64,000 nucleotides of DNA, from the NCBI GenBank assembly GCA_965198115.1, contig OZ240241.1, positions 4,288,001 to 4,352,000 of the forward strand, given 5' to 3'. This document shows, one piece after another, positions 3,938 through 18,383 of this stretch. This DNA comes from Candidatus Latescibacterota bacterium (GTDB taxonomy: Bacteria > Latescibacterota > UBA2968). The number at the start of each line of letters is the position of its first letter. Within the stretch, counting starts at the first letter, position 1. The translations under genes were made by a program, and so were the position numbers. The notes beneath the pieces were generated by a model. That model saw only the letters and a list, made by a program, of their open reading frames with translations. It was not told the origin of the DNA and made no database searches.

Positions 3938-3973
3938 CCCCGCTTCCCTGAGGGAAGTCGGGGTTCTTTTTTT
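3938..3973 (+). terminator. Riboswitch expression-platform terminator
   Basis: CCCCGCTTCCC-TGA-GGGAAGTCGGGG hairpin followed by a T run. Confidence 0.75.
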
Positions 3974-6164
3974 GCGCTTTACGTTCTCCATCGGTCTTTT
4001 GCTCGCGTCCTTCTGCGGTGTCGTCGATGCCACTACGCTCGACGGCATCGTAACCATCGTCGATTCCGGACAGCCTCTTGCGGGCGCAACGGTCCGGCTA
4101 GCCGGTACCGAACGTGCGGCGGAGACAGACGCGTTCGGTCGATTCCGCTTCAGCGATCTGCCCCAGGGCGACTACCGAATCGAAGTCCGCCACGTCGGCT
4201 ACCACACATCGTCGCTCGACGTCGCGATCGGAAGTGACTTCCTTCCGCTCTCCATCGCTCTCGTCCCTCAACCGATCCCCCTCGACGATCTCTCGGTCAC
4301 CGCTCACCCCGACCCGGACATCGCTCGACAGCCGGCTTTCTCGGTCATCATCCCGCGCGAAGCGTTCGAAGGTCGTGCAACGACCCTGCCCGAAGTCCTT
4401 TCCGCCACGACGGGAGTCCAGGTTCGATCGCTCGGGGGAATGGGCGCATTCAGCACGATCTCTGTCCGCGGCTCGTCTAGTGAACAGGTCGATGTCTACC
4501 TCGACGGGATCTCTCTCAACACTGCCCTTGGCGGAGGGATCGACCTCAGCAATCTGCCGCTGTCGCATATCGGCCGAATCGAAGTACGGCGTGGCGCCGG
4601 CCAGGACGGCCACGGACTTGGCGGGACCGTTCACATACGCACGAGAGCGATCGCCGATAAAACCCCGCCCGGGGTCTTTGCGTCGTGGGGCTCATTCGAC
4701 ACTCGATCGATCAGCGCCGTCTGGACGGCTCGATCGGGCCGTTGGCGCTCTCTCTTCGTAGTCGACTACGCTGCGAGCGACAATGACTTTCCCTTCCTGG
4801 ACGATAACGGCACGGAGTACAACGCCAACGACGATGCCGTCGTTCAACGGCGGAACAGCGATGTGTCCTCGGGTAGCGTGCTCGCAAAATCGCGTTTCCG
4901 GCTGACCGAAGCTCGCAGCCTGTCTCTTCATCAGACCCTGTTCTGGAAACGCCAGGGCATTCCAGGCCTCAGCAACAATCAGTCGACCGATGCCCGTTTC
5001 GACACATTCCGCAGCCTCACCGAGATCGTCTACGAAGACAGGGCATTCTTCGACCGCCTCTTCTCCCGACAGACGTTCTACTTCACACACACTGGTGAGT
5101 CTTTCGAAGACATCGTTGGGGAGGTCGGCGTGGGTCGGCAGAACAACGAAGACCGTACACGATCGATCGGCTGGCGCACCGAAACCCGCTGGCCGTTCCC
5201 CACCGGGCATCTGATCCGGCTGATCACCGATGTCGGCCGCGAGACGTTCGACCCTACCGCCCACATCCAGCTCATCACGCCACTGTTCGCCGCTCGGCGA
5301 ATGAGGTTTGCCGGAGGAACGAGCGCGGATCTCACCCTCCCGCGTGACATCGGCGTGTGGTCCTCGCGAGTAGACGCGCGACAACTTCGTAGCCGTCTCG
5401 AGGGTCGAAATCCATTCGCATTCTCACCACAGGCCCCCGACAGCAGTCAGACGCAAACGTCGATCAGCGCAAGCACGGGCATCCGCATCGACATTACGAG
5501 CACGCTCTCGTTCAGGGCCAACACCGGTCGTTCCGAGCGCGCTCCCAGCTTTTACGAGCTGTTCGGCGACCGGGGTGGCGTCGTCGGCAACACGAGAATC
5601 CGTCCAGAACGCGCCTACACGTGGGACACTGGATTTCGCTATGGCGGTCCCACGCTCGGGGCCGAGGCAGCCTACTTCGACCATCGCTACAACGACCTCA
5701 TCCAGTTCTTTCAGACATCGCAGGCCACCTCCCGGCCGCACAACATCGGGAAGGCGCGGGTCCGAGGATTGGAACTCAGCGGCTCCGTTACGACTGCGTC
5801 TTGGGCCGTCGGTTTCAACTACACCCTTCAGGACGCAAGCGACCGATCGAATAGTCCGAGCCGAACCGGGAAGACCCTGCCCAACCGGCCGCGGCACGCA
5901 TTGGCTTTCCATACGACCACGAAGTTCCACGGTGTCTCAACGCGGTATGACTACACCTTCCAGGGCGGGAACTTCCTCGACCCCGCCAACCGGCGTCCAC
6001 TCGATCCGCGACATCTTCACGGTGCAGTCGTTCACCTGGACGTGTCTCCGTCTGTTCGACTCGGGCTTGAGGCCAGGAATATCACGAACGCCCAGATCAA
6101 CGACGTTTGGGGCTATCCGCTGCCCGGACGCGCGTGGTTCGTCAACGTCCAAACAGTTCCGTAG
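3972..6164 (+). CDS. TonB-dependent receptor, probable cobalamin transporter (BtuB-like), with N-terminal CarboxypepD_reg-like domain
   Basis: Signal peptide; plug motif ISVRGS...VYLDG...IEVRRG; RAPSFYELF; C-terminal NITN..YPLPGR; directly under a B12 riboswitch. Confidence 0.88.
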   Translation: MRFTFSIGLLLASFCGVVDATTLDGIVTIVDSGQPLAGATVRLAGTERAAETDAFGRFRFSDLPQGDYRIEVRHVGYHTSSLDVAIGSDFLPLSIALVPQPIPLDDLSVTAHPDPDIARQPAFSVIIPREAFEGRATTLPEVLSATTGVQVRSLGGMGAFSTISVRGSSSEQVDVYLDGISLNTALGGGIDLSNLPLSHIGRIEVRRGAGQDGHGLGGTVHIRTRAIADKTPPGVFASWGSFDTRSISAVWTARSGRWRSLFVVDYAASDNDFPFLDDNGTEYNANDDAVVQRRNSDVSSGSVLAKSRFRLTEARSLSLHQTLFWKRQGIPGLSNNQSTDARFDTFRSLTEIVYEDRAFFDRLFSRQTFYFTHTGESFEDIVGEVGVGRQNNEDRTRSIGWRTETRWPFPTGHLIRLITDVGRETFDPTAHIQLITPLFAARRMRFAGGTSADLTLPRDIGVWSSRVDARQLRSRLEGRNPFAFSPQAPDSSQTQTSISASTGIRIDITSTLSFRANTGRSERAPSFYELFGDRGGVVGNTRIRPERAYTWDTGFRYGGPTLGAEAAYFDHRYNDLIQFFQTSQATSRPHNIGKARVRGLELSGSVTTASWAVGFNYTLQDASDRSNSPSRTGKTLPNRPRHALAFHTTTKFHGVSTRYDYTFQGGNFLDPANRRPLDPRHLHGAVVHLDVSPSVRLGLEARNITNAQINDVWGYPLPGRAWFVNVQTVP

Positions 6165-6172
6165 GAGGAACT

Positions 6173-7441
6173 ATGTTTTGCTCTCTCGTTCGATCCCTGA
6201 TCACAACCGTGATGTTCGTTTCGGTCGCCCACGGGGAGCCGAGAACCATCGTGACGACGACCGACTTCACGACCGGAAGCCTCTCCTCGGTCGACGACGC
6301 GGGAACAGTCACGGACGACCTTCTCCTCATCCACAGTGACGCGCGTGTACGCGTGTTCGGAAACCGTGTCTACATCATCAACCGGCTCGGCCAGGACAAC
6401 ATCATCGTGCTCGACAAGGACGACCTCGCAATGCCCCTCACACAGTTCTCAACGGGCGACGGTAGCAACCCGCACGAAATGATCGTCGTCAGCGACGAGA
6501 AGGCCTACGTTTCGGTTTATGGGAAGGACTACCTGCTTGTCGTCAACCCGGCGACTGGAGACTCGTCGGATATCATCAGTCTCTCCTCCTTCTCGGACGC
6601 CGACGGTCTACCTGAAGCTTCCCAGCTCGCATTTTATGCAGGGCATCTCTTCGTCGCGTGTCAACGACTGGATCGGGATGCTCCTCTCTTCGCCCCTACT
6701 GAATTCAGCACGATCGCCGTCGTCGATGTTTCATCGGACGCGCTGGTGGACATGGATCCCACGAGCCCGGAGATGGATGGGATCCGCCTTACGGCTAGCC
6801 AGCCGTTTGGGGCGGCCCAGCGCGGCCCCTGGTGGGTTCTGGCCGAAGTTGGGACATTCGGTGCCAACGACGGTGGCATCGAAGTTGTGGATCTGATCAA
6901 CCGTGAAGTCAGTGGCATTCTCGTTTCTGAGGAGGCCCTGGGAAATGACGTCAACGCCATCGCGATGGTCAGCGACAGTGAAGGTTATGTCGTGCTGTCA
7001 AGTTCGATTCCCCCGTTTCCGAATTTTGTGCGGCGCTTCAACCTTGGCACGGGGGAAGTATCTGCTACCCTTGAAGGCGTCACTACTGGCTACATTTCGA
7101 CCTTGGTTTCCGCGCCAGGCCGACTCTACGTCGCGGACCGGAGTACCTTCGACGCTCCCGACGAAGCGGGGGTGAGGGTCTTCGATTCAGCAACCGAATC
7201 CCTCATCCAAGGACCACTCGCCACGTCGCTTCCACCCTTCGACATCGCCATTGTTGATGTGGTTCGGAGCGACTTCGACGGAAACGGAAACGTCGATTTT
7301 ACCGACTTCCTCACCTTCGCCACCGCGTTCGAAACATCGCACGGCGATGAAACGTTCTCCTCCAGCTCCGATCTGGACACGAACGGGACCGTCGACTTTG
7401 CTGACTTCCTGATCTTCGCTTCGGAATACGACGGGCCGTAA
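6173..7441 (+). CDS. Secreted YncE/BtuG-like beta-propeller with C-terminal dockerin/EF-hand-like pair
   Basis: Blade repeats (VYIINR, NPHEM..VSDEKAYVS, LFVACQ, RLYVADR); two DxDGNGxVDFxDFL loops; AGGAGG RBS. Confidence 0.7.
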   Translation: MFCSLVRSLITTVMFVSVAHGEPRTIVTTTDFTTGSLSSVDDAGTVTDDLLLIHSDARVRVFGNRVYIINRLGQDNIIVLDKDDLAMPLTQFSTGDGSNPHEMIVVSDEKAYVSVYGKDYLLVVNPATGDSSDIISLSSFSDADGLPEASQLAFYAGHLFVACQRLDRDAPLFAPTEFSTIAVVDVSSDALVDMDPTSPEMDGIRLTASQPFGAAQRGPWWVLAEVGTFGANDGGIEVVDLINREVSGILVSEEALGNDVNAIAMVSDSEGYVVLSSSIPPFPNFVRRFNLGTGEVSATLEGVTTGYISTLVSAPGRLYVADRSTFDAPDEAGVRVFDSATESLIQGPLATSLPPFDIAIVDVVRSDFDGNGNVDFTDFLTFATAFETSHGDETFSSSSDLDTNGTVDFADFLIFASEYDGP

Positions 7442-7448
7442 CGAATAG

Positions 7449-8039
7449 ATGTCTGACATCAAGGCCATACCACCCAGCGACCGCATCGATTCACATCATT
7501 GCCTGCACGTCTACTACGGCTATGGGAAAGGCAAGACGACAAGCTGTATGGGGCTGGCGCTCCGAGCGGCGGGTTCAGGTCACAGAGTCGCCATCGTTCA
7601 GTTCGACAAGGGGTACGATGGCGAAGTCGAGCACTACGCCGAGCGAAATGTGTTGCGCACCATCGAGGGCGTGGATCTGCATCCTACCGGAGCCGAACGA
7701 ATGCAGGGCGACGGCAGTTTTCGCTTCGGTGTAGAGTCGCGGGACATCGACGAAGCAAAGCGGGGTGTCGGGATCGCGCGTGAATTCCTCGAATCGGGCA
7801 ACCAGCACGTCCTCATCCTCGACGAAGTCCTGGCGGCCGTCGCCTACGACCTGCTCCCCGAATCAGAAGTGATGTCGCTCATCGACTTCTACGATGCCAA
7901 CCGAGGCTGCGAGCTCGTGATGTCCGGTCACAAAGTGTGGGAAAGCCTGATCGAGCGCGCCGACCTGGTAACAGAAATGCGCAAGGTCAAACACTACTAC
8001 GCCAAAGGCGTCCCCGCACGTCCCGGCATCGAATTTTAG
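7449..8039 (+). CDS. cobO: Cob(I)yrinic acid a,c-diamide adenosyltransferase (CobA/CobO/BtuR)
   Basis: YYGYGKGKTT P-loop, ILDE, ADLVTEMRKVKH.Y..G..AR.GIEF. Confidence 0.92.
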   Translation: MSDIKAIPPSDRIDSHHCLHVYYGYGKGKTTSCMGLALRAAGSGHRVAIVQFDKGYDGEVEHYAERNVLRTIEGVDLHPTGAERMQGDGSFRFGVESRDIDEAKRGVGIAREFLESGNQHVLILDEVLAAVAYDLLPESEVMSLIDFYDANRGCELVMSGHKVWESLIERADLVTEMRKVKHYYAKGVPARPGIEF

Positions 8040-8230
8040 CGATTCTTGGCGCCCCTCAGTGACTGACCTGCTGGAGCCTGCACGAAGTCGAAGTGACAGA
8101 CATACTCGGGGACGCGGATCCTTATTCTTACGAAGACAATCGCCGTGAGCCCGAGTGCCCTTCGACGCTGGCGTCGAAGGGTGTAACGAAGGCCGCGCAC
8201 CTTAAACCTGACACCTGACGACTGGCAAAT

Positions 8231-9355
8231 ATGACCCCCAGATTGCTCGCTTACGTCGCAGCCCTGCTCATCCTCCTGGGCCCCACCCACGCCGCCGACC
8301 TCTTCCCCCACAAGGCAGAGATCCGACACGCGACCGGCTTCGAGGTCAGCTACCACGACACCTATAAGATCGTTCGCGTCCTCCGGCCCTGGAAGGGCGC
8401 GAGAGAGACGTTCACTTACGTGCTGGTCCAGGAAGGCACTCCGCGACCCGAGGGCTACGAGGATGCCCAGACAATCACGGTCCCCGTCCGTCGTTTTGTC
8501 GCCCTTTCGTCGACCTACTTGCCCCACGTGGAAAAAATAGATGCCATCGATCGCCTGATCGGACTTGGAAAGGCGTCTTTCGTCTACTCTCCGGCCATCC
8601 GCGCCGAAATTGCAAACGGAAGGATCGTCGAAACGGGGTCCGACGGGAGCCTAAACATCGAAACGCTCGTCTCGCTCTCCCCCGATCTCGTCATGTCCTA
8701 CGGGTCGGGGAACCCCGCCGGCGACGTGCACCCCAAGCTGATGGAAGTCGGCATACCTGCGGCTGTCAACGGTGAATTCATGGAACCCAGCCCCCTCGGT
8801 CGTGCCGAATGGCTGAAGTTCACAGCCCTCTTCTTCAACCTCGAAAAGAGGGCCGAAGTCGCCTTCAAAGAGGTCGAGACGGACTACCTTCGTCTCGCTA
8901 CCCTGACATCCGGCATCGATCATCGGCCGACGGTCTTCACAAACATCAGCTGGCACGGGGTCTGGCACGCATCAGGAGGACGGAGTTTCATGGCTCGGAT
9001 GCTCGATGACGCGGGGGCCGACTACATTTGGAAGGACGATCAGAGCGATCGGAGTATCCCTCTCGACTTCGAAGCCGTCCTCGACAGGGCCCTGCACGCT
9101 CGATACTGGATCAACACGGGTCAGTGGACGTCGCGTCAACAGGCGCTCGCAAACGACGAACGCTACGCCACGTTCGATGCGTTCAAAACAGGTCATATGT
9201 ACAACCACAACGCACGGGCGAATGACACGGGCGGCGACGACTACTGGGAATCGGGTGTCGCGAATCCCCACCTCGTGCTCGCCGACCTGATCAAGATTTT
9301 TCACCCCCATCTGCTGCCCGATCACACGCTGCACTACTATCGGCGGTTGCCCTGA
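8231..9355 (+). CDS. ABC transporter substrate-binding protein (cobalamin/iron complex)
   Basis: Signal peptide; PVRRFVALSST, E.SPLGRAEWLKF, YWESGVANP..VLADLI. Confidence 0.88.
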   Translation: MTPRLLAYVAALLILLGPTHAADLFPHKAEIRHATGFEVSYHDTYKIVRVLRPWKGARETFTYVLVQEGTPRPEGYEDAQTITVPVRRFVALSSTYLPHVEKIDAIDRLIGLGKASFVYSPAIRAEIANGRIVETGSDGSLNIETLVSLSPDLVMSYGSGNPAGDVHPKLMEVGIPAAVNGEFMEPSPLGRAEWLKFTALFFNLEKRAEVAFKEVETDYLRLATLTSGIDHRPTVFTNISWHGVWHASGGRSFMARMLDDAGADYIWKDDQSDRSIPLDFEAVLDRALHARYWINTGQWTSRQQALANDERYATFDAFKTGHMYNHNARANDTGGDDYWESGVANPHLVLADLIKIFHPHLLPDHTLHYYRRLP

Positions 9356-10446
9356 TGGCCACGCCGCAGCCGCGCCAGGATGAAAACATCCAACCGATGC
9401 CCACGCCGCCCTCGACCGGTGGGCCCTTTTTCACGCTTCTGGCTGGCGTGGTGGTTCTTTTCTGTGCCTCCCTTGCGCTCGGATCCGTCCGGATTCCCCT
9501 TCACGAGGTCATCACCATTCTCGCCGGCGATTCAACGGGCTCAACGGCCTGGCACCAGATCGTCACACAAATCCGACTCCCCCGTGCGATCACCGCTGGG
9601 CTGGGTGGGGCCGCCCTCGCCGTCAGCGGCCTTCAGATGCAGACCCTCTTTCGGAACCCGCTCGCCGGGCCCTTCGTCCTCGGCATCAGCGCCGGCGCGA
9701 GCCTCGGTGTGGCCCTGGTCGTGCTGACGTTTGGGGCCGGGGCTTCCGCCCTCATCGCGGGACTCAGCGTCGCTGGCGGGTTCGGCCTCACCGTGGCGGC
9801 CAGCTTGGGAGCCGGCGCTGTTCTGGGTCTCGTGCTGCTCGTGTCAAGACGTGTCGAGGACAACATGACGCTCCTCATCCTCGGGCTGATGTTCGGCTAC
9901 GCGTCGGGCGCGTTCGTCAGCGTGCTCATCTATTTCAGCGCATCGAACGCGGTACAGGCCTACCTCATCTGGACATTCGGCAGCTTCTCGGGTGTCACCT
10001 TCTCTCAGCTGATCGTCTTCGGCCCGGCGGCCACCATCGGGCTTCTGGTGGCCGCGTGCTCGACCAAGTCGCTCAACACCCTGTTGCTGGGCGAACGTTA
10101 CGCCGAAAGTATGGGCCTGAGTGTGGGATATGCGCGCGTCTGGATTCTGTCCAGCGCCTCGCTCCTCGCTGGCGTCACCACCGCCTTCTGCGGACCCGTC
10201 GCCTTCGTCGGCATCGCGGTGCCCCATCTCGTCCGCAGTCTTTTTTCTACATCCGACCACCGTGTTCTATTGCCGGGCACCTGCCTGATGGGCGCGGCCC
10301 TGGCGCTCTTCGCCGACCTCGTGGCCCGACTACCCGGCAGTCAGGTTACGTTGCCGCTCAACGCGGTGACCGCACTGATCGGTGCCCCGATCGTCGTCTG
10401 GATCGTCCTCCGACGGCGGAACCTTCGCACATCGTTTGCAGCCTGA
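9355..10446 (+). CDS. ABC transporter permease, FecCD/BtuC family
   Basis: RLPRAIT, QTLFRNPLA.P..LGISAGA, GE.YA.S.G, GPVAFVG...PH. Confidence 0.92.
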   Translation: MATPQPRQDENIQPMPTPPSTGGPFFTLLAGVVVLFCASLALGSVRIPLHEVITILAGDSTGSTAWHQIVTQIRLPRAITAGLGGAALAVSGLQMQTLFRNPLAGPFVLGISAGASLGVALVVLTFGAGASALIAGLSVAGGFGLTVAASLGAGAVLGLVLLVSRRVEDNMTLLILGLMFGYASGAFVSVLIYFSASNAVQAYLIWTFGSFSGVTFSQLIVFGPAATIGLLVAACSTKSLNTLLLGERYAESMGLSVGYARVWILSSASLLAGVTTAFCGPVAFVGIAVPHLVRSLFSTSDHRVLLPGTCLMGAALALFADLVARLPGSQVTLPLNAVTALIGAPIVVWIVLRRRNLRTSFAA

Positions 10447-10448
10447 CC

Positions 10449-11486
10449 GTGACCCTGCTCGAAACCCGATCGCTGACCATCGGCTACGCTCCACAAAAGG
10501 CGTCGCCTCAGGTCGTAGCCCACGACCTGACGGTGAACCTGGCGAGCGGGGAATTCGTCTGTCTACTCGGCCCCAACGGCGTAGGGAAATCGACGCTCAT
10601 GCGTACCCTCGCCGGAATGCAGCGACCGCTCGGGGGTCGTGCCTTGATCGCCGGCGTCGACGTCACGACGATGACCACACGCGATCGAGCGCGACACGTC
10701 GGCATCGTCCTGACCGATCGCGTCGACGCTGGTCATCTCGATGCCAGAACACTCGTTGGTCTCGGTCGCTACCCCTACACGGACTGGTTGGGTCGACTCG
10801 GTCCAGACGACCTCGAGCAGGTAAGCTGGGCGATCGCGGCGGTCGACGCGATAGAACTCGCCGATCGCCCCATCAACGAACTCAGCGACGGCGAGCGCCA
10901 AAAGGTGATGATCGCACGAGCCCTCGCCCAGGACACGGCCCTGGTCCTTCTGGATGAGCCGACAGCCTTCCTGGACTTGCCACGGCGTGTGGAAATCGTC
11001 GCTCTGTTGCGCCGGCTGGCCCGCCAGACAGGAAAGTCGATTCTCGTCTCGACACACGACCTCGATCTGGCTGTTCGTAACGCCGACAGGATCTGGCTCA
11101 TGTCGAATTCGAGCATCGAAGTCGGTGTCCCCGAGACACTCGTCCTCAACGGAGCTTTCGGCCGCGTGTTCGAACGCGACGGCATCCTCTTCGATCGCCA
11201 GGCAGGCGCCTTTACCGTCCCGACTGAAAACGTCACCCCCGTCCTGCTTCACGGCACAGGTCTCGTGGGGGCCTGGACGACACGAGCACTCGAACGAGTC
11301 GGTTTCGAAGTCCGTCCTGCACGTTCTCCGGACGAGGCCGCTACGGTCGTTTTTGTCGAAGGCGTCGAGGACCATCCCGTCTGGAGACTCGAGCGACCCG
11401 GTCGCGAAGACGTCTTCGAATCCCTCGACGGGCTTCTCGGTTGTCTGTCGCCCTCGCGGCCCCACCCGACCACCAGACGAACGTGA
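10449..11486 (+). CDS. ABC transporter ATP-binding protein (BtuD/FecE-like)
   Basis: GPNGVGKST, LSDGERQ, LLDEPT, STHD; GTG start at 10449. Confidence 0.92.
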   Translation: MTLLETRSLTIGYAPQKASPQVVAHDLTVNLASGEFVCLLGPNGVGKSTLMRTLAGMQRPLGGRALIAGVDVTTMTTRDRARHVGIVLTDRVDAGHLDARTLVGLGRYPYTDWLGRLGPDDLEQVSWAIAAVDAIELADRPINELSDGERQKVMIARALAQDTALVLLDEPTAFLDLPRRVEIVALLRRLARQTGKSILVSTHDLDLAVRNADRIWLMSNSSIEVGVPETLVLNGAFGRVFERDGILFDRQAGAFTVPTENVTPVLLHGTGLVGAWTTRALERVGFEVRPARSPDEAATVVFVEGVEDHPVWRLERPGREDVFESLDGLLGCLSPSRPHPTTRRT

Positions 11487-12406
11487 TGCGCATCGTCTCA
11501 CTTATTCCGAGCGGCACCGAGATCGTCTCCGCCTTGGGTCGTGCCGATCAGCTTGTCGGTCGATCTCACGAATGCGATTACCCGGCTTCGGTCGTCGATC
11601 TTCCAGCGTGCACGGCACCCAAATTCGACCCGGAAGGGAGCAGTGCCGAAATCGACGAGCGGGTGCGCGAAATCCTTCAGAATGCGCTCGCCGTCTACAG
11701 CGTCGACGAGAACAAGCTTCGCGACCTGGCACCCGACGTCATCGTAACACAGACACAATGTGAGATCTGCGCAGTCAGTGCGTTGGACGTGCAGCGGACC
11801 GTATCGCAGTGGGTGGGTACCAGATCCCGCATCGTCACCATGGAGGCGGGGGACATCGATGGCCTTTGGGCAGACATCGAATCGCTCTCACTCGCCCTGA
11901 GCGACCTCGATACGGGCAATCTGCTCACGGCGCGTCTCAAAATGCGAATGGCCGACATCGCCGGCGCGGTCCCTTCGCTCGGAGTCGAGCAACCAACCGT
12001 CGTCTGTATCGAATGGTTCGATCCCCTGATGACGGCGGGCAACTGGGTCCCCGAACTCGTGTCCATGGCTGGCGGCAAGTCGCAGATCGGACAGGCCGGC
12101 CAGCATTCGGGAACAATCGAGTGGCACCACCTGTTGGCTGCCGACCCCGATGTGATCGTCCTGAGGCCCTGCGGGTTCGATCAGGGTCGCACAGTCGACG
12201 AAGCGCGCGGAATCCTCTTCGATCGAACCGATTGGCAGCACCTGCGAGCCGTCCGGAACGATCGCGTCTTCGCGACGGACGGAAACCACTTCTTTAACCG
12301 TCCGGGCCCACGTCTCGTCGAGTCCCTCGAGATCCTGGCCGAAATCCTGCACCCCGACCAGTTCGATTTCGGCCACCGCGGCGTAGCCTGGAAACGGATT
12401 TCCTAA
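11486..12406 (+). CDS. Second periplasmic cobalamin-binding-type protein (BtuF-like)
   Basis: MRIVSLIPSGTEIV, SHECDYP, PDVIVTQ.QC..CAV, NRPGPRL; TGATG overlap with the upstream gene. Confidence 0.85.
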   Translation: MRIVSLIPSGTEIVSALGRADQLVGRSHECDYPASVVDLPACTAPKFDPEGSSAEIDERVREILQNALAVYSVDENKLRDLAPDVIVTQTQCEICAVSALDVQRTVSQWVGTRSRIVTMEAGDIDGLWADIESLSLALSDLDTGNLLTARLKMRMADIAGAVPSLGVEQPTVVCIEWFDPLMTAGNWVPELVSMAGGKSQIGQAGQHSGTIEWHHLLAADPDVIVLRPCGFDQGRTVDEARGILFDRTDWQHLRAVRNDRVFATDGNHFFNRPGPRLVESLEILAEILHPDQFDFGHRGVAWKRIS

Positions 12407-13376: not shown

Positions 13377-13859
13377 TTACCGTCTCTCCAACGGGATCTC
13401 CAGATCGAGCTGTTCCAGCTGGATCCCCGATTCACCAGCCAGCTGCCAGTAGATATCCTCCAGTTCCTGCTCGTAATCATACGGTTCAACGAAAGTGATA
13501 CGTCGGATCCCGGCCTGGACAGACTCCTTCAGGCAGCCGAAACAGGGTCGGGTCGTGCAGTAGAGCACGGCGTCTTCCGTCCGAGCTCCGTGACGCGCCG
13601 CAAAGCAGATCGCATTCTCCTCGGCGTGAACACAGATACACGTGTCCGTACTCTGACCCGACGGCACGTCCGACGCGCAACGCGGGCAACCCCCTTCGTA
13701 GCAATTTCGCACACCAACAGGCGTCCCGTTGTAACCCGTACTGATGATGTTGTTTTCCTTGACGATGACCGCTCCGACTTGCCTCCGAATGCAGTTCGAG
13801 CGCTTGGCCACGTCATACGCGATCGTCGTGAAGTACTCATCCCAGGAGGGTCGATTCAT
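13377..13859 (-). CDS. dCMP deaminase / ComEB family zinc deaminase
   Basis: RPSWDEYF, TGYNG.P, HAE.NA, PC..C. Confidence 0.92.
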   Translation of the reverse strand: MNRPSWDEYFTTIAYDVAKRSNCIRRQVGAVIVKENNIISTGYNGTPVGVRNCYEGGCPRCASDVPSGQSTDTCICVHAEENAICFAARHGARTEDAVLYCTTRPCFGCLKESVQAGIRRITFVEPYDYEQELEDIYWQLAGESGIQLEQLDLEIPLERR

Positions 13860-14016
13860 CTACGAACTCCTTTCATAACCTGCGCCGAATTTAGTTCGTC
13901 GCCTCATCGGGGCCAAATACAACGTTCGAGAAGCTCCGGCGATCGTCGCTTAACTTGAATCTTGGAATGAGAACTCCCATTGGTATATTTCTGACAGAAT
14001 CGCACTTCAACTTGGA

Positions 14017-15870
14017 GTGACCTCAATGATGCACCCGACAACGACCGCCTTCGGTATTTGGAGTGGCGGACACTTTATGCATTTCGGCAGCGACATCGGC
14101 TCGGAAAACCTCGAATCGGCCGTCCGATACGCCTACGACGAGGGCGTTCGTACGTTCATCACAGCCGACGTCTACGGACAGGGAGCGGCCGATGAACTAC
14201 TCGGACGGGCCCTCGCCCACTACGATCGAGACTCCTATTGCCTAGTCGGTGCCATCGGCCACGACTACTACAACGGCGCGCGCGAGGCCGAGCGAGGCTA
14301 CCCTCGCTTCACCGACCCGACGCTTCGCGCCCCGGTCGAATACGGAGATTACATCGACGAGGCGGTCGACAAATCCCTCGAGCGCCTCGGCCACGATCGC
14401 TTCGATCTGCTCCTGCTGCACAACCCCGACACGACGGGATACACACATCAGGCGGTGTGGGACGCCCTGGAGGGGGTGCGCGACAGCGGCAGAACCGCGC
14501 TTTTGGGCGTCGCTCCCGGCCCGGCGAACGGGTTCACGCTCGACGTCATCGACTGCTTCGAAAGACACGGCGACCGCATCGACTGGGCCATGCTCATCCT
14601 CAACCCGCTCGAACCGTGGCCGGGTGGTCTCTGTCTCGACGCGGCGGCCAAACACGACGTCAAAGTCATCGCGCGTGTCGTCGACTACGGCGGCATTTTT
14701 CACGACGACCTTAACGCCGGTGCCCGCTTGCCACGCACCGATCATCGTTCGTTCCGTCCGGCGGGATGGATCGAAGCCGCACACGAAAAGCTGGAACGGT
14801 TCCGCGAAATCGCCAGCCACCACGATCTGTCGCTCCTTCAGTTCGCCTGCAAGTGGGACCTCGGCCAAACTGCCGTCGAATGCGTCGTTCCCACCTTGCT
14901 CCAGGAACCGAAGCCCGACGCCAAATCCATCGAGCAGCAGATCGACGAACTCGTCACCGTCCAGGGCAAAGAAAACCTGACCCCCGATGAACTCACCGAG
15001 GTTCGCAGGCTCGGAGACAACGCGAATTGCATGGCCCTTAAGGGAGCGTCGACGCAGTATCTGGGCGAGCCGATCGGCGATCAATGGCCGATGACCAGCG
15101 AGTTGCGCGAAGTGGGCAAACGATGGGGCATCGAACCCGACCGCGATCTGCTCTATCCCGGCGATATTCGCGACATCCGCGAAAAAGGGGCACCGCGACA
15201 CGGCGTCCCCCAGTCGAGCACACGCCGGCTCTACGTCCAGCTGCTTGCCTTCGGCGTTTGTCGCGACACCGCCCCCCTCGTCGACGCGCTGGGAAAATCC
15301 GATCTGGAGACCGTCCTCTACAGCGACATCAACGATCCTTTCGGAGTTGCCCTCCTACTGATCGCTGAAGATCCATCGACCCTGACCGGGAGCGTCCGGG
15401 CCTTCATCGCATCCAGTCCCTTCGGCGAACTGACGCTAAAGCCGCATCTCACGATGCTCGGACGCACCTACTCGACCGGTCGCGAACCCAACCTCGAGGA
15501 CTACCTGCTCGGCAAGCCCAGACGAAACGCACTCAACACCGAATGGCCCTGGGCGATCTGGTATCCTCTGCGACGCAAGTCCGAATTCGCCCTACTCCCG
15601 CACGCCGAACAGGGCAAGATCCTCTACGAACACGCCACGATCGGTCGTACCTACGGGACTGCGGGCTATGCCCACGACATCCGTCTTGCCTGCTACGGTC
15701 TGGACGAACACGACAACGAATTCGTCCTCGGCCTCATCGGCCCGGATCTGTTCCCACTCTCCCGAATCGTCCAGGAAATGAGAAAGACCCAACAGACCGG
15801 AAAATACATGGAATCCCTTGGGCCCTTCTTCGTCGGCAGGGCAATCTGGCAGAGCCCACTGAAGAAGTAG
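14017..15870 (+). CDS. Fusion of an N-terminal aldo/keto reductase domain and a C-terminal chlorite dismutase/coproheme decarboxylase (ChdC/HemQ)-like domain
   Basis: AKR: TADVYG.G, SLERLG...DLLLLHNPD. C-terminal: WYPLRR..F..LP..EQ..IL.EH..IG, GLD...EF, IVQEMR, GPFFVG. One uninterrupted frame. Confidence 0.8.
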   Translation: MTSMMHPTTTAFGIWSGGHFMHFGSDIGSENLESAVRYAYDEGVRTFITADVYGQGAADELLGRALAHYDRDSYCLVGAIGHDYYNGAREAERGYPRFTDPTLRAPVEYGDYIDEAVDKSLERLGHDRFDLLLLHNPDTTGYTHQAVWDALEGVRDSGRTALLGVAPGPANGFTLDVIDCFERHGDRIDWAMLILNPLEPWPGGLCLDAAAKHDVKVIARVVDYGGIFHDDLNAGARLPRTDHRSFRPAGWIEAAHEKLERFREIASHHDLSLLQFACKWDLGQTAVECVVPTLLQEPKPDAKSIEQQIDELVTVQGKENLTPDELTEVRRLGDNANCMALKGASTQYLGEPIGDQWPMTSELREVGKRWGIEPDRDLLYPGDIRDIREKGAPRHGVPQSSTRRLYVQLLAFGVCRDTAPLVDALGKSDLETVLYSDINDPFGVALLLIAEDPSTLTGSVRAFIASSPFGELTLKPHLTMLGRTYSTGREPNLEDYLLGKPRRNALNTEWPWAIWYPLRRKSEFALLPHAEQGKILYEHATIGRTYGTAGYAHDIRLACYGLDEHDNEFVLGLIGPDLFPLSRIVQEMRKTQQTGKYMESLGPFFVGRAIWQSPLKK

Positions 15871-16038: not shown

Positions 16039-17253
16039 TTGGATCGCGAACCGGCTTGGCGTGAGCACCTCGATCGTGCGATTCTCGCACACGAAGAAAC
16101 GATCACCTCCGTCCGGAGACACCTTCACAGATACCCCGAGCCAAGCGGCCAGGAAATCCAGACAACCCAGTACCTGGAGCACCTGGTAGAGGACACCGGC
16201 CTGGCGCCGAGACGCCCTGAGAATGGCTGCGGTCTGATCGTCGATTCACCCGGGACGTCGCCTACCCGGGTCGCGCTGAGGGCGGATATAGACGCACTCA
16301 GGATCCAGGACACCAAGAAGACCGCCTACCGAAGCCACGTCGACGGTCTAACGCACGCGTGCGGTCACGACGGCCACACCGCCGCCGTGGTAGGCGCGCT
16401 GCTCGGCATCATCAATGCAGGGCGCCATAACCTTTTACCGTGGCCCGTCGACTGGCGGGTCATTTTCCAGTCTGCAGAGGAAACGAACGAAGGGGCCCTG
16501 GCAATGATCGGTGCGGGAGCGATCGACGACGTCAGCGCCATCTTCAGCCTGCACGCAGACCCCAGCAGGCCGACGGGATGCGTGGGGGTCTCGCCCGGTC
16601 CGATCACCGCCGAATGTCGCTTTGTCGAAATACACCTTCGAGGCGTCGGCGGTCACGCTGCCCGACCGCACGAAGCCCGCGACCCCCTCGCTTCGGCCAT
16701 CCGACTCATGCACAACCTGTATGGTGACCTCGGACGACGTCTGAACGCACACGACCCCGTGGTGTTTACGATCGGGCAGGTCGTTGGCGCGACCAGTCCG
16801 AACGTCATTCCAGATACGGTAACACTCAGGGGCACCCTCAGGTCCCTGGACACGACAGTCGGCGATACGGCCTACGACAGGATCGTCACGCTTGGCCGTG
16901 CAGAGACGGCGGCCTCCGGGGTTGACATCGACGTGTCGGGAAGCATCGGTCCCCCATCCGTCACGAACGACCCCGACCTGGCCGCTATTGTGACCCGCTG
17001 TGCGGAACACGTCGTTGGCCCCGACGGTGTTCAGCCGATCACCGAGCCCAGCATGGGAGGCGAAGACTTCGCCAACTACCAGACGCGTATTCCGGGCTGC
17101 TTGTTCCGGCTCGGTTGTGCGCTCGGGCCCCATGGTAGCCCGCCGCTACACGCCTCGGACTTTGACCTCGACGAAGCCGCACTGCCCCTGGGTTCCCGCA
17201 TCCTCGCCCGGTGTCTCGTCGAAGCTTCGAAACCCTGCCCGGAGGACCCATGA
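16039..17253 (+). CDS. M20D family amidohydrolase
   Basis: RRHLH..PE, LRADIDAL, HACGHDGH, FQ.AEE, GGH.A.PH, GGEDF. Confidence 0.92.
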   Translation: MDREPAWREHLDRAILAHEETITSVRRHLHRYPEPSGQEIQTTQYLEHLVEDTGLAPRRPENGCGLIVDSPGTSPTRVALRADIDALRIQDTKKTAYRSHVDGLTHACGHDGHTAAVVGALLGIINAGRHNLLPWPVDWRVIFQSAEETNEGALAMIGAGAIDDVSAIFSLHADPSRPTGCVGVSPGPITAECRFVEIHLRGVGGHAARPHEARDPLASAIRLMHNLYGDLGRRLNAHDPVVFTIGQVVGATSPNVIPDTVTLRGTLRSLDTTVGDTAYDRIVTLGRAETAASGVDIDVSGSIGPPSVTNDPDLAAIVTRCAEHVVGPDGVQPITEPSMGGEDFANYQTRIPGCLFRLGCALGPHGSPPLHASDFDLDEAALPLGSRILARCLVEASKPCPEDP

Positions 17254-18383
17254 GGAGTCTCGACTTCAACACCAGCCCAAAACCGACGATCGGTGTCGAA
17301 ATCGAACTGGCACTCGTCGACATCGAAACGATGGCCCTCAAGAGCGTGAACCAACCGATTTTAGATAGCCTGCCCGAAAACCTTGCGGATCGGGTCAAAC
17401 CCGAACTCATGCAATGCTATGTGGAGCTCAACACAGGGATCTGCAGGAACGTCAGCGAGGCCGAAGCCGACCTACAGACAACCCTCGGCGCCCTTTCCTC
17501 CGCCGCCGACCGAGAGAACGCCGCACTCTATTGGTCGGCCACACACCCGTTCTCGAAGTGGAAGGACCAGACCGTTACCGACAACGACCGGTATCGAGGT
17601 CTTGTCTCCCAACTCCAGGACACCGCCAGGCAGCTCGTCACATTCGGCCTCCACGTCCACATCGGCGTCGACACGGGAGACAAAGCGGTGATGATCTGCG
17701 ATCGGATCTTACGGTTCCTCCCCGTGCTCCTCGCGATCAGCAGCAACAGCCCTTTCTGGGAAGGAAGGAATACGGGTCTCGCTTCCTGGCGTTCCAAGGT
17801 GATGGAAGGTCTGCCCACAGCGGGTCTCCCTCCGCTCATGCGAAACTGGAGCGAGTATGTGTGGCTCGTCAACCACCTGATCGACACGGGGTTCCTCGAA
17901 TCGATCCGCGAAATCTGGTGGGATGTCCGCCCACACCACGGATTCGGAACGGTCGAGGTGAGAATCTGCGACATACCTGGCACCCTCCAGGACACGTTGA
18001 GCATCGTCGCGTTCATACAGTGCCTGGTACAGTATCTATCGGATCAGATCGAGGAGGGCACGTACCAGCACGACTGCCATCCCATGCTGGTCCGTCAGAA
18101 CAAGTGGCACGCCGCCCGGTACGGACTCGAAGCAAGTCTCGTCGATTCAGAGACGCACGAGTTACGGCCAGTCAGGGAAGTCGTAACCGAGATGATCGGA
18201 AAACTCGGACCCGTGTCCCAAGACCTAGGTTGCCAGGAGTATCTGGTGTGTCTGATCGACCAGGCCAGGCAAAAGTCGTGGGCCCATAGACAAGTCGACC
18301 TGCTGGAAAAGACGGGGGACCCTGCGGCCGTCGTACGCCAAGGAATCGAGGCGTCCTCGATCGGCGCGTCTTCGCCAAGCTGA
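17250..18383 (+). CDS. YbdK/GCS2 family carboxylate-amine ligase
   Basis: TIGVE.E, ELMQC.VE, FGLHVHIG, SSNSPFW.G, WWDVRP...FGTVEVR.CD. Confidence 0.9.
   Translation: MRSLDFNTSPKPTIGVEIELALVDIETMALKSVNQPILDSLPENLADRVKPELMQCYVELNTGICRNVSEAEADLQTTLGALSSAADRENAALYWSATHPFSKWKDQTVTDNDRYRGLVSQLQDTARQLVTFGLHVHIGVDTGDKAVMICDRILRFLPVLLAISSNSPFWEGRNTGLASWRSKVMEGLPTAGLPPLMRNWSEYVWLVNHLIDTGFLESIREIWWDVRPHHGFGTVEVRICDIPGTLQDTLSIVAFIQCLVQYLSDQIEEGTYQHDCHPMLVRQNKWHAARYGLEASLVDSETHELRPVREVVTEMIGKLGPVSQDLGCQEYLVCLIDQARQKSWAHRQVDLLEKTGDPAAVVRQGIEASSIGASSPS

Follow-up and report, generated by a model that had tools for sequence, protein, structure and literature searches.

The 64,000-nucleotide stretch analysed here, called the window throughout (contig OZ240241.1 of assembly GCA_965198115.1, from a Candidatus Latescibacterota bacterium), carries a gene for a two-domain protein in which a barrel of the aldo-keto reductase (AKR) fold is followed by a domain of the ChdC/HemQ type. 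Together these domains likely catalyse the two final steps by which haem is made from siroheme. The barrel probably replaces AhbC, the radical S-adenosylmethionine (SAM) enzyme that converts didecarboxysiroheme to coproheme, and feeds ChdC with its product, since its carriers mostly lack AhbC as well as HemE and HemH and since the barrel is fused ahead of ChdC. We see an even chance for the wider claim of a widespread oxygen-tolerant, radical-SAM-free haem route (siroheme, divergent AhbAB, AKR-fold deacetylase, ChdC) in Verrucomicrobia, Thermoleophilia-type actinobacteria, Latescibacterota and Planctomycetota, whose key enzyme would be an AKR barrel cutting two C-C bonds of an iron-isobacteriochlorin, found here as a ChdC-fused two-step haem synthase.

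In the accessible text of the papers on the siroheme route (PMC13564367, PMC10114771, PMC8305020, PMC5746218), AhbA/B form didecarboxysiroheme, AhbC removes two acetates to give coproheme, and coproheme is turned into haem b by AhbD or, aerobically, by ChdC. The available part of PMC10114771 states that the iron-sulfur radical SAM enzyme AhbC has not been studied in purified form.

Haem genes in genomes carrying the barrel

Carriers of the barrel were compared with related genomes by whole gene content. Most of the profiled genomes are metagenome assemblies and they are kin to one another, the subsets used for HemE, AhbA and AhbC (up to 80 genomes) were picked by us, a gene is called AhbC-like when its match has E<1e-90, and Fisher tests on co-occurrence are descriptive only, as kin are not independent. 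Within the host's own phylum (151 genomes) this type of ChdC occurs in 51 genomes, seven of which carry the barrel, always in fused form; these seven represent three genera of two families, and two further genomes hold only a distant sister AKR. HemH was found in none of the seven fusion genomes versus all 44 with the plain ChdC, HemE in 0/7 versus 14/14 tested, and the divergent AhbAB in 7/7 versus 0/14 tested; an AhbC-like gene is present in two of the seven. In the actinobacterial class of genome G010 (probably Thermoleophilia; 61 genomes, 20 of them carriers), HemH is absent from all carriers versus present in 19 of 41 non-carriers, HemE stands at 0/20 versus 14/20 and AhbA at 19/20 versus 2/20, with AhbA lying in hemB-ahbAB-hemL operons in the carriers where these were read. 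AhbC-like genes occur in five of these 20 carriers, and both non-carriers with AhbA have AhbC in the same region. Among carriers reached mainly via Verrucomicrobia-labelled loci, the divergent AhbAB was found in 27/30 (two being contig-end fragments), compared with 4/29 non-carriers (two close and two weak matches), three of these four with an AhbC-like gene; HemH and HemE were each seen in 2/19 carriers of this group and AhbC-like genes in 4/19.

Summed over these groups, AhbC-like genes are present in 11 of 44 genomes that hold both barrel and AhbAB versus five of six AhbAB genomes without the barrel. The presence of AhbAB and absence of HemE/HemH in barrel carriers spans three phyla, two AhbAB types and several ChdC types, and within a single family the pattern separates genera. 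Of 12 unfused carriers tested, 10 have a ChdC-family gene; the ChdCs of unfused carriers are of ordinary types, two of them above the HemQ cut-offs. Because the barrel co-occurs with AhbAB and ChdC and almost never with HemE/HemH, its place in haem synthesis is supported, and with it the general claim of an earlier sequence-only reading of this gene, which had tied the barrel to tetrapyrrole synthesis. The particular roles offered by that reading, oxidation of coproporphyrinogen with NAD(P) or redox support on which ChdC of the coproporphyrin route would depend, we regard as scarcely credible: the AKR fold, the fusion to ChdC and the lack of HemY in the host speak for them, but HemE is absent from 7/7 fusion genomes, 20/20 actinobacterial and 17/19 other carriers, so that coproporphyrinogen is likely not made, and 44 of the 51 genomes with this ChdC type manage without the barrel, which leaves no support for a need of redox help.

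The host genome itself (G000; 8.43 Mb, one contig, 100% complete) contains hemA, hemC, cobA-hemD and CysG-N/SirC (above cut-off) in one operon, together with hemB, hemL and CbiX, and the fusion is its only PF06778 match. A search of the genome revealed no HemH, HemE or HemY; its single UroD-family match in Pfam proved to be an MtaA-type methyltransferase beside a corrinoid protein. The gene content is thus that of a siroheme route, with siroheme synthesis genes and AhbAB present and HemE/HemY/HemH absent, and because of this absence G000 likely makes no coproporphyrinogen; the porphyrinogen oxidation suggested earlier would probably have no substrate here. Two AhbAB systems are present. One cluster holds a canonical AhbAB, an AhbC-like gene, an ApbE-like gene and an ahbD-like gene with two frameshifts, both of which recur in contigs of two runs on a single sample, which may be where this DNA came from; the cluster may be an anaerobic route with a decayed AhbD. 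The second, a divergent single-chain AhbAB, lies apart from it and has the Pfam domains NirdL-HTH and AsnC_trans_reg2; its best solved relative is the NirD-like structure 4ch7 (E 1.1e-5) and a motif resembling His-x-Tyr-x-Arg is kept in its C-terminal half. The divergent AhbAB of the fusion genomes form a clade with 23–27% identity to canonical AhbAB.

The smallest case is the sixth AhbAB genome without the barrel, G290 (915,884 bp), which was read whole. It contains hemA/B/C/L, cobA-hemD, a two-domain CbiX, a divergent AhbAB and ChdC, as well as cytochrome-oxidase and cytochrome genes (by motif), and no match to HemE, HemY, HemH, AhbC or AhbD was found in the whole genome. By this gene content, there are haem routes that combine AhbAB with ChdC and lack AhbC. 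The single AKR match of G290 belongs to a sister clade, AKR-B, which shares several motifs with the barrel and keeps the full AKR tetrad; its gene is 4 kb away from AhbAB and 11 kb away from ChdC, all three genes falling within 18 kb (for three random points, a chance of about 0.001). Further members of AKR-B are L304 (G205), L305 (G052) and L130 (G059); G052 has ChdC and no HemH or AhbC match. An obligatory pairing of AKR-B with the barrel subfamily (AKR-A) was rejected, as no close AKR-B is present in G000 or in 5 carriers.

G290 also bears on the possibility that the barrel works at an earlier step or on a branch without metal, by oxidising precorrin-2 in place of SirC, by inserting iron, or by removing acetates from a metal-free didecarboxy intermediate. 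G290 gave no SirC match with one query and one motif, HemH is missing from all seven fusion genomes, the sister AKR retains an NAD(P)-type tetrad, and the substrate of the divergent AhbAB is assigned by family only. Such a role nevertheless appears improbable to us, as G000 has CysG-N/SirC in its hemA operon as well as CbiX, G290 has its two-domain CbiX, and the fusion to ChdC points to the step directly before ChdC. A simple exchange of ferrochelatase was dropped as an explanation, since it leaves the accompanying loss of HemE unexplained.

The fusion protein and its two domains

The fusion is a single open frame of 617 codons when read from GTG 14017, as the sequence-only reading had it; all residue numbers here are counted from this codon. 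The likely start is ATG 14026, giving 614 residues, as in a database record of the same length (P0002). Both domains score above the curated Pfam cut-offs in the HMMER check that had been advised, PF00248 at residues 23-294 (E 7.8e-26) and PF06778 at residues 505-609 (E 8.5e-14). The fusion is real and conserved: among the best 120 database matches, 68 clusters are full-length fusions (590-680 residues, 52-100% identity), which rules out an assembly artefact or chance read-through and disposes of the worry that the fusion might be unique to this assembly. By source name the fusions belong to groups such as Latescibacteria, Planctomycetota, Omnitrophica and Sumerlaeaceae; a separate search added a Bdellovibrionota record. 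The other 52 of these matches are stand-alone barrels, mostly of about 376 residues and 56-62% identity. Stand-alone C-terminal domains are also common (about 245 residues, 59-72% identity, a few of them perhaps fusion fragments), and since they start at the motif of fusion residues 386-391 there is almost no linker between the two domains. In FastTree trees, built from samples biased to near matches, the fused C-terminal domains do not form one clade. No hem enzyme other than ChdC was found as a partner in 16 longer or odd matches inspected, an Atlas search returned unnamed AKR clusters only, and barrel motifs occur in an estimated 2,600 or so stored genome stretches.

The AlphaFold model of the barrel (mean predicted local distance difference test score, pLDDT, 86.6) has AKRs such as 6ow0, 1pyf and 3n2t as its best Foldseek matches, with template modelling scores of about 0.64-0.67. 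The canonical Asp-Tyr-Lys-His tetrad is incomplete in it, two of the four residues being lost (Table 1). In an alignment of 120 relatives the position of the catalytic Asp is M/V/L/I in 119 rows, and the five commonest residues at the A79 position cover 118 rows with Lys not among them, which agrees with the earlier remark that the Lys site is altered. That reading had also seen Asp, Tyr and His as kept: it was right about Tyr53 and His135, whereas the Asp it pointed to, D51 of 'TADVY', is not the catalytic one, whose true position is I48. Among the positions relevant to NAD(P)H binding the GxW of beta1 is kept, and in 119-120 of 120 relatives the Ser-Asn of beta5 is replaced by Ala-Pro and the Gln of beta6 by Met; the roles of the tetrad, beta5 and beta6 positions are those we take them to have in AKRs. 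Because of these replacements the NAD(P)-linked chemistry proposed for this subfamily seems doubtful. Conversely, conservation in at least 118 of the 120 relatives extends to 33 charged or aromatic residues, including seven Arg, Lys342, His82 and His243, and this conservation reads as a non-canonical site suited to a polyanion. Pfam and NCBIfam scans revealed no radical SAM/SPASM domain in the fusion; to judge from its domains, the barrel would be no member of the AhbC family and at most a functional analogue.

The lost residues give the barrel the look of a pseudoenzyme, and it could instead assist in the same route, whether by carrying or shielding didecarboxysiroheme or coproheme or by helping with redox chemistry; the acetates would then be removed by ChdC and peroxide, by another, unrecognised protein (e.g. 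a HemN/HemW-like radical SAM enzyme) or non-enzymatically. G290 does encode a HemN_C radical SAM protein, and a ChdC fused to a non-ChdC domain of unclear role exists in PitA, as far as the available text of PMC5746218 describes it. We consider such an accessory role unlikely, although a serious alternative: it sits poorly with the 33 conserved residues, the occurrence of AhbC in five of the six barrel-free AhbAB genomes fits substitution better than assistance, and nothing about the ordinary ChdCs of unfused carriers suggests that they have gained a reaction.

The C-terminal domain (model pLDDT 89.2) superimposes on Listeria ChdC 4wws in VIA-align with Z 18.3 and a root-mean-square deviation of 3.1 over 199 aligned residues; the top 16 entries of the structure ranking are all of the HemQ/ChdC type (Z 16.1-18.3), with the best Cld at 14.8 and the best DyP at 13.0. 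The Tyr of the YP motif and the proximal His, noted earlier as kept, are indeed so in the fused rows of the alignment (Y516-P517 in 74/74, H539 in 73/74), and each is kept in 69/74 stand-alone rows, mis-picked frames included. D554, present in 74/74 fused rows, aligns with the distal Gln of Listeria ChdC, at what we take to be the position of the distal Arg of Cld; the sequence-only reading had correctly seen Asp there and had missed R556, two residues on, which is equally invariant (74/74). Stand-alone domains have the equivalent Asp in 71/74 and the equivalent Arg in 70/74 rows, and this distribution marks the Asp/Arg pair as a trait of the ChdC subfamily and not of the fusion. The pair is reminiscent of the peroxidase-type Asp/Arg pair and also occurs in stand-alone members from coproporphyrin-route operons. 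R520, R589 and T594 align with the propionate-binding Lys, Arg and Ser of Listeria ChdC, presumably K151, R220 and S225 (counted on the alignment). The accessible text of PMC7611857 describes the roles of the ChdC catalytic Tyr, proximal His and propionate-binding residues, and defines Cld by a distal catalytic Arg and an Ile at the ChdC Tyr position; the domain studied here has Asp554 and Tyr516 at these two places and its R556 two residues off. Its NCBIfam HemQ scores, 34.2 of 253 and 33.1 of 235 bits, are far under the cut-offs and set it apart as a separate subfamily. Stand-alone homologues close a hemD/E-hemY-hemH operon in L154 and follow hemD/E-hemY in L140; judged by its fold, its catalytic Tyr and proximal His and this operon context, the subfamily is most likely ChdC, predicted to perform, as is likely, the last step of haem synthesis. 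HemD-HemE fusion proteins open these operons.

Around the fusion gene, the window contains upstream a divergent gene of the dCMP-deaminase family, which also lies upstream of fused and stand-alone ChdC genes in the relatives L093, L095, L097, L098 and L132, and a likely cobalamin uptake cluster with a TonB receptor, a DUF5074/dockerin-like protein, a CobO adenosyltransferase, two periplasmic binding proteins and ABC parts. Downstream follow an M20 amidohydrolase and a YbdK-type carboxylate-amine ligase. Elsewhere in G000 an array of 20 tRNA genes is packed within 2 kb.

Table 1. Positions of the features discussed; numbers refer to the window unless a genome or locus is named.
Feature	Position	Strand	Basis
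GGAG ribosome-binding site, 8 nt ahead of ATG 14026	14014..14017	+	sequence
Fusion gene, 614 residues from ATG (617 from GTG 14017)	14026..15870	+	open reading frame, database matches
AKR-fold barrel (AKR-A subfamily), residues 4-381; candidate AhbC substitute	14026..15159	+	PF00248, AlphaFold model, Foldseek, genome profile
I48, at AKR catalytic Asp position (lost)	14158..14160	+	alignments to solved AKRs
Y53, AKR catalytic Tyr (kept, 120/120)	14173..14175	+	alignment of 120 relatives
A79, at AKR catalytic Lys position (lost)	14251..14253	+	alignments
H135, AKR tetrad His (kept, 120/120)	14419..14421	+	alignment of 120 relatives
ChdC/HemQ-type domain, residues about 383-617	15163..15870	+	PF06778, model, stand-alone homologues sharing start motif
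Y516, aligned with ChdC catalytic Tyr	15562..15564	+	alignment to Listeria ChdC
H539, aligned with proximal haem ligand	15631..15633	+	alignment to Listeria ChdC
D554-I555-R556, Asp at distal position and conserved Arg	15676..15684	+	alignment to Listeria ChdC
Likely cobalamin uptake cluster	3972-12406		
Divergent dCMP-deaminase-family gene	13377-13859	-	
M20 amidohydrolase and YbdK-type ligase	16039-18383		
ahbD-like gene with two frameshifts	G000:C1:4200019-4201123 (L083:14020-15124)	-	sequence
Divergent single-chain AhbAB	G000:C1:6943514-6944647		
Array of 20 tRNA genes	G000:C1:2870558-2872531		
AKR-B of G290	L302:8502-9563		
HemD-HemE fusion proteins	L154:1069-3063; L140:1483-3453		

Proposed route and points against it

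From the genes, residues, folds and co-occurrence described above we infer the following activities. Siroheme would be formed by HemA/L/B/C/D and SUMT, followed by SirC and a chelatase, the genes being present and the flux presumed. The divergent single-chain AhbAB, whose gene is likewise present, would by its family produce 12,18-didecarboxysiroheme. Coproheme would next arise as the barrel strips rings A and B of their two acetate arms, a step suggested by the pathway gap and the fusion order, and the fused ChdC domain, with peroxide and Tyr516, would yield haem b, as its fold, residues and operon context indicate. Were the barrel to catalyse acetate removal, chemistry independent of NAD(P) can be put forward tentatively, as a possibility that we rate on the low side: its invariant Arg and His residues would hold the iron-isobacteriochlorin, and C-C cleavage might be set off, as in ChdC, by Tyr53 and the iron of the substrate itself with O2 or H2O2, which is a guess. 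By our own reasoning a radical or a transient oxidation at the substrate iron is plausible, because the two reduced rings can formally shed two acetic acids without net oxidation or reduction. A complex prediction for the barrel with the divergent AhbAB gave a score of 0.00, to which we attach no weight either way.

Several observations weigh against the barrel as a substitute for AhbC. AhbC-like genes are present in 11 of 44 carriers, G000 among them, and since no AhbC match reached the curated cut-off, these counts take AhbC and NirJ together. G007 (L219, L309) and G018 (L218, L308) have the barrel and the divergent AhbAB alongside HemE/HemH. AhbAB was not found in 3/30 carriers, nor AhbA in 1/20, these being partial genomes. 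The divergent AhbAB of the host is under the NCBIfam cut-offs for AhbA and AhbB (58 of 140 and 90 of 125 bits), and the SirC searches in G290 mean that a second gap may exist in that genome. AKR-B keeps its full tetrad and also stands beside AhbC in G205, and may therefore be unrelated to the route. Cleavage of such a C-C bond is not known to us from any enzyme of the AKR fold. As the genomes are kin, the profile amounts to three or four lineages and not to about 100 independent tests. G007 and G018, for their part, may have both routes or be binning mixtures.

The gene neighbourhood also belongs on this side. Among 80 sampled genome loci of the barrel (6 fusions, 74 unfused), no hem gene was detected in the flanks of any of the 74 unfused barrels by tblastn with the C-terminal domain, clustering of open reading frames and 21 hem-pathway queries, at least 3 kb being available on both sides in 51/74; and none of 80 metagenome loci of the C-terminal domain has an unfused barrel beside it, one being a fusion. 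The linkage of unfused homologues to hem genes that had been anticipated is accordingly seen at whole-genome level only. The ChdC subfamily of the fusion gave 0 close and 9 weak matches in 50 unfused-barrel genomes, with 24 further loci outside the search; unfused carriers use other ChdC types. The missing neighbourhood link and the few independent lineages would suit a barrel of unrelated function that merely travels with AhbAB lineages and was fused incidentally. We think this very improbable, given that the pattern with AhbAB and without HemE/HemH is found again and again across three phyla, involves two AhbAB types and several ChdC types, and divides genera of one family, and given that the fusion is kept in 68 clusters.

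With the barrel as probable AhbC substitute, what is new is a candidate enzyme type within a known siroheme-dependent haem route; a search of the open-access literature turned up no paper that connects this AKR family with haem synthesis. In the accessible sections of two reviews (PMC13564367, PMC10114771) AhbC is the only enzyme named for the conversion of didecarboxysiroheme to coproheme, and many genomes here have the steps before and after AhbC and neither AhbC nor HemE or HemH. The fusion offers one soluble protein on which the proposed activity could be assayed by pigment. If active, it would establish a new way of making haem and chemistry novel for the AKR fold, and possibly an air-stable route to coproheme and haem.

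Comparison with known systems

The barrel shares the (beta/alpha)8 fold and the tetrad Tyr and His with the IolS/AKR11 and MtmW AKRs (1pyf, 3n2t, 6ow0); it differs from them in its low identity of about 21%, in the replaced catalytic Asp/Lys and beta5/beta6 cofactor residues, and in an insertion after beta3 and an extra C-terminal segment. The C-terminal domain has the fold, catalytic Tyr and proximal His of the ChdC/HemQ proteins of Listeria (4wws/5loq/6fxj), Thermus (1vdh) and Corynebacterium (6xuc), along with basic or hydroxyl residues at the propionate positions and homologues in hemE-hemY-hemH operons, whereas its identity to them is about 20%, its distal Gln is replaced by Asp with a conserved Arg, it carries an N-terminal barrel, and its host has no coproporphyrin route.

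At the level of the route, the nearest parallel is Haloferax volcanii, in which, according to the available text of PMC5746218 and PMC8305020, ChdC (PitA) serves aerobically in place of AhbD together with AhbAB and AhbC. The proposed route would likewise start at siroheme via an AhbAB-like protein and end at haem b; it differs in that AhbC is absent in 33/44 genomes with barrel and AhbAB, and in that the AhbAB of the fusion genomes is divergent. Fusion of ChdC to a second domain is likewise known from haloarchaeal PitA (ChdC-ABM) and from the CpfC-ChdC protein of Cutibacterium acnes, in which ferrochelatase is joined to ChdC (PMC8529089, as far as its accessible text goes). In contrast to both, ChdC is joined here to an AKR-fold barrel, in a host without the ferrochelatase HemH. 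The Cutibacterium partner makes the coproheme that ChdC uses, and by the likeness in order, the barrel standing before ChdC as ferrochelatase does in the accessible description of that protein, we read the barrel as the likely enzyme feeding ChdC.

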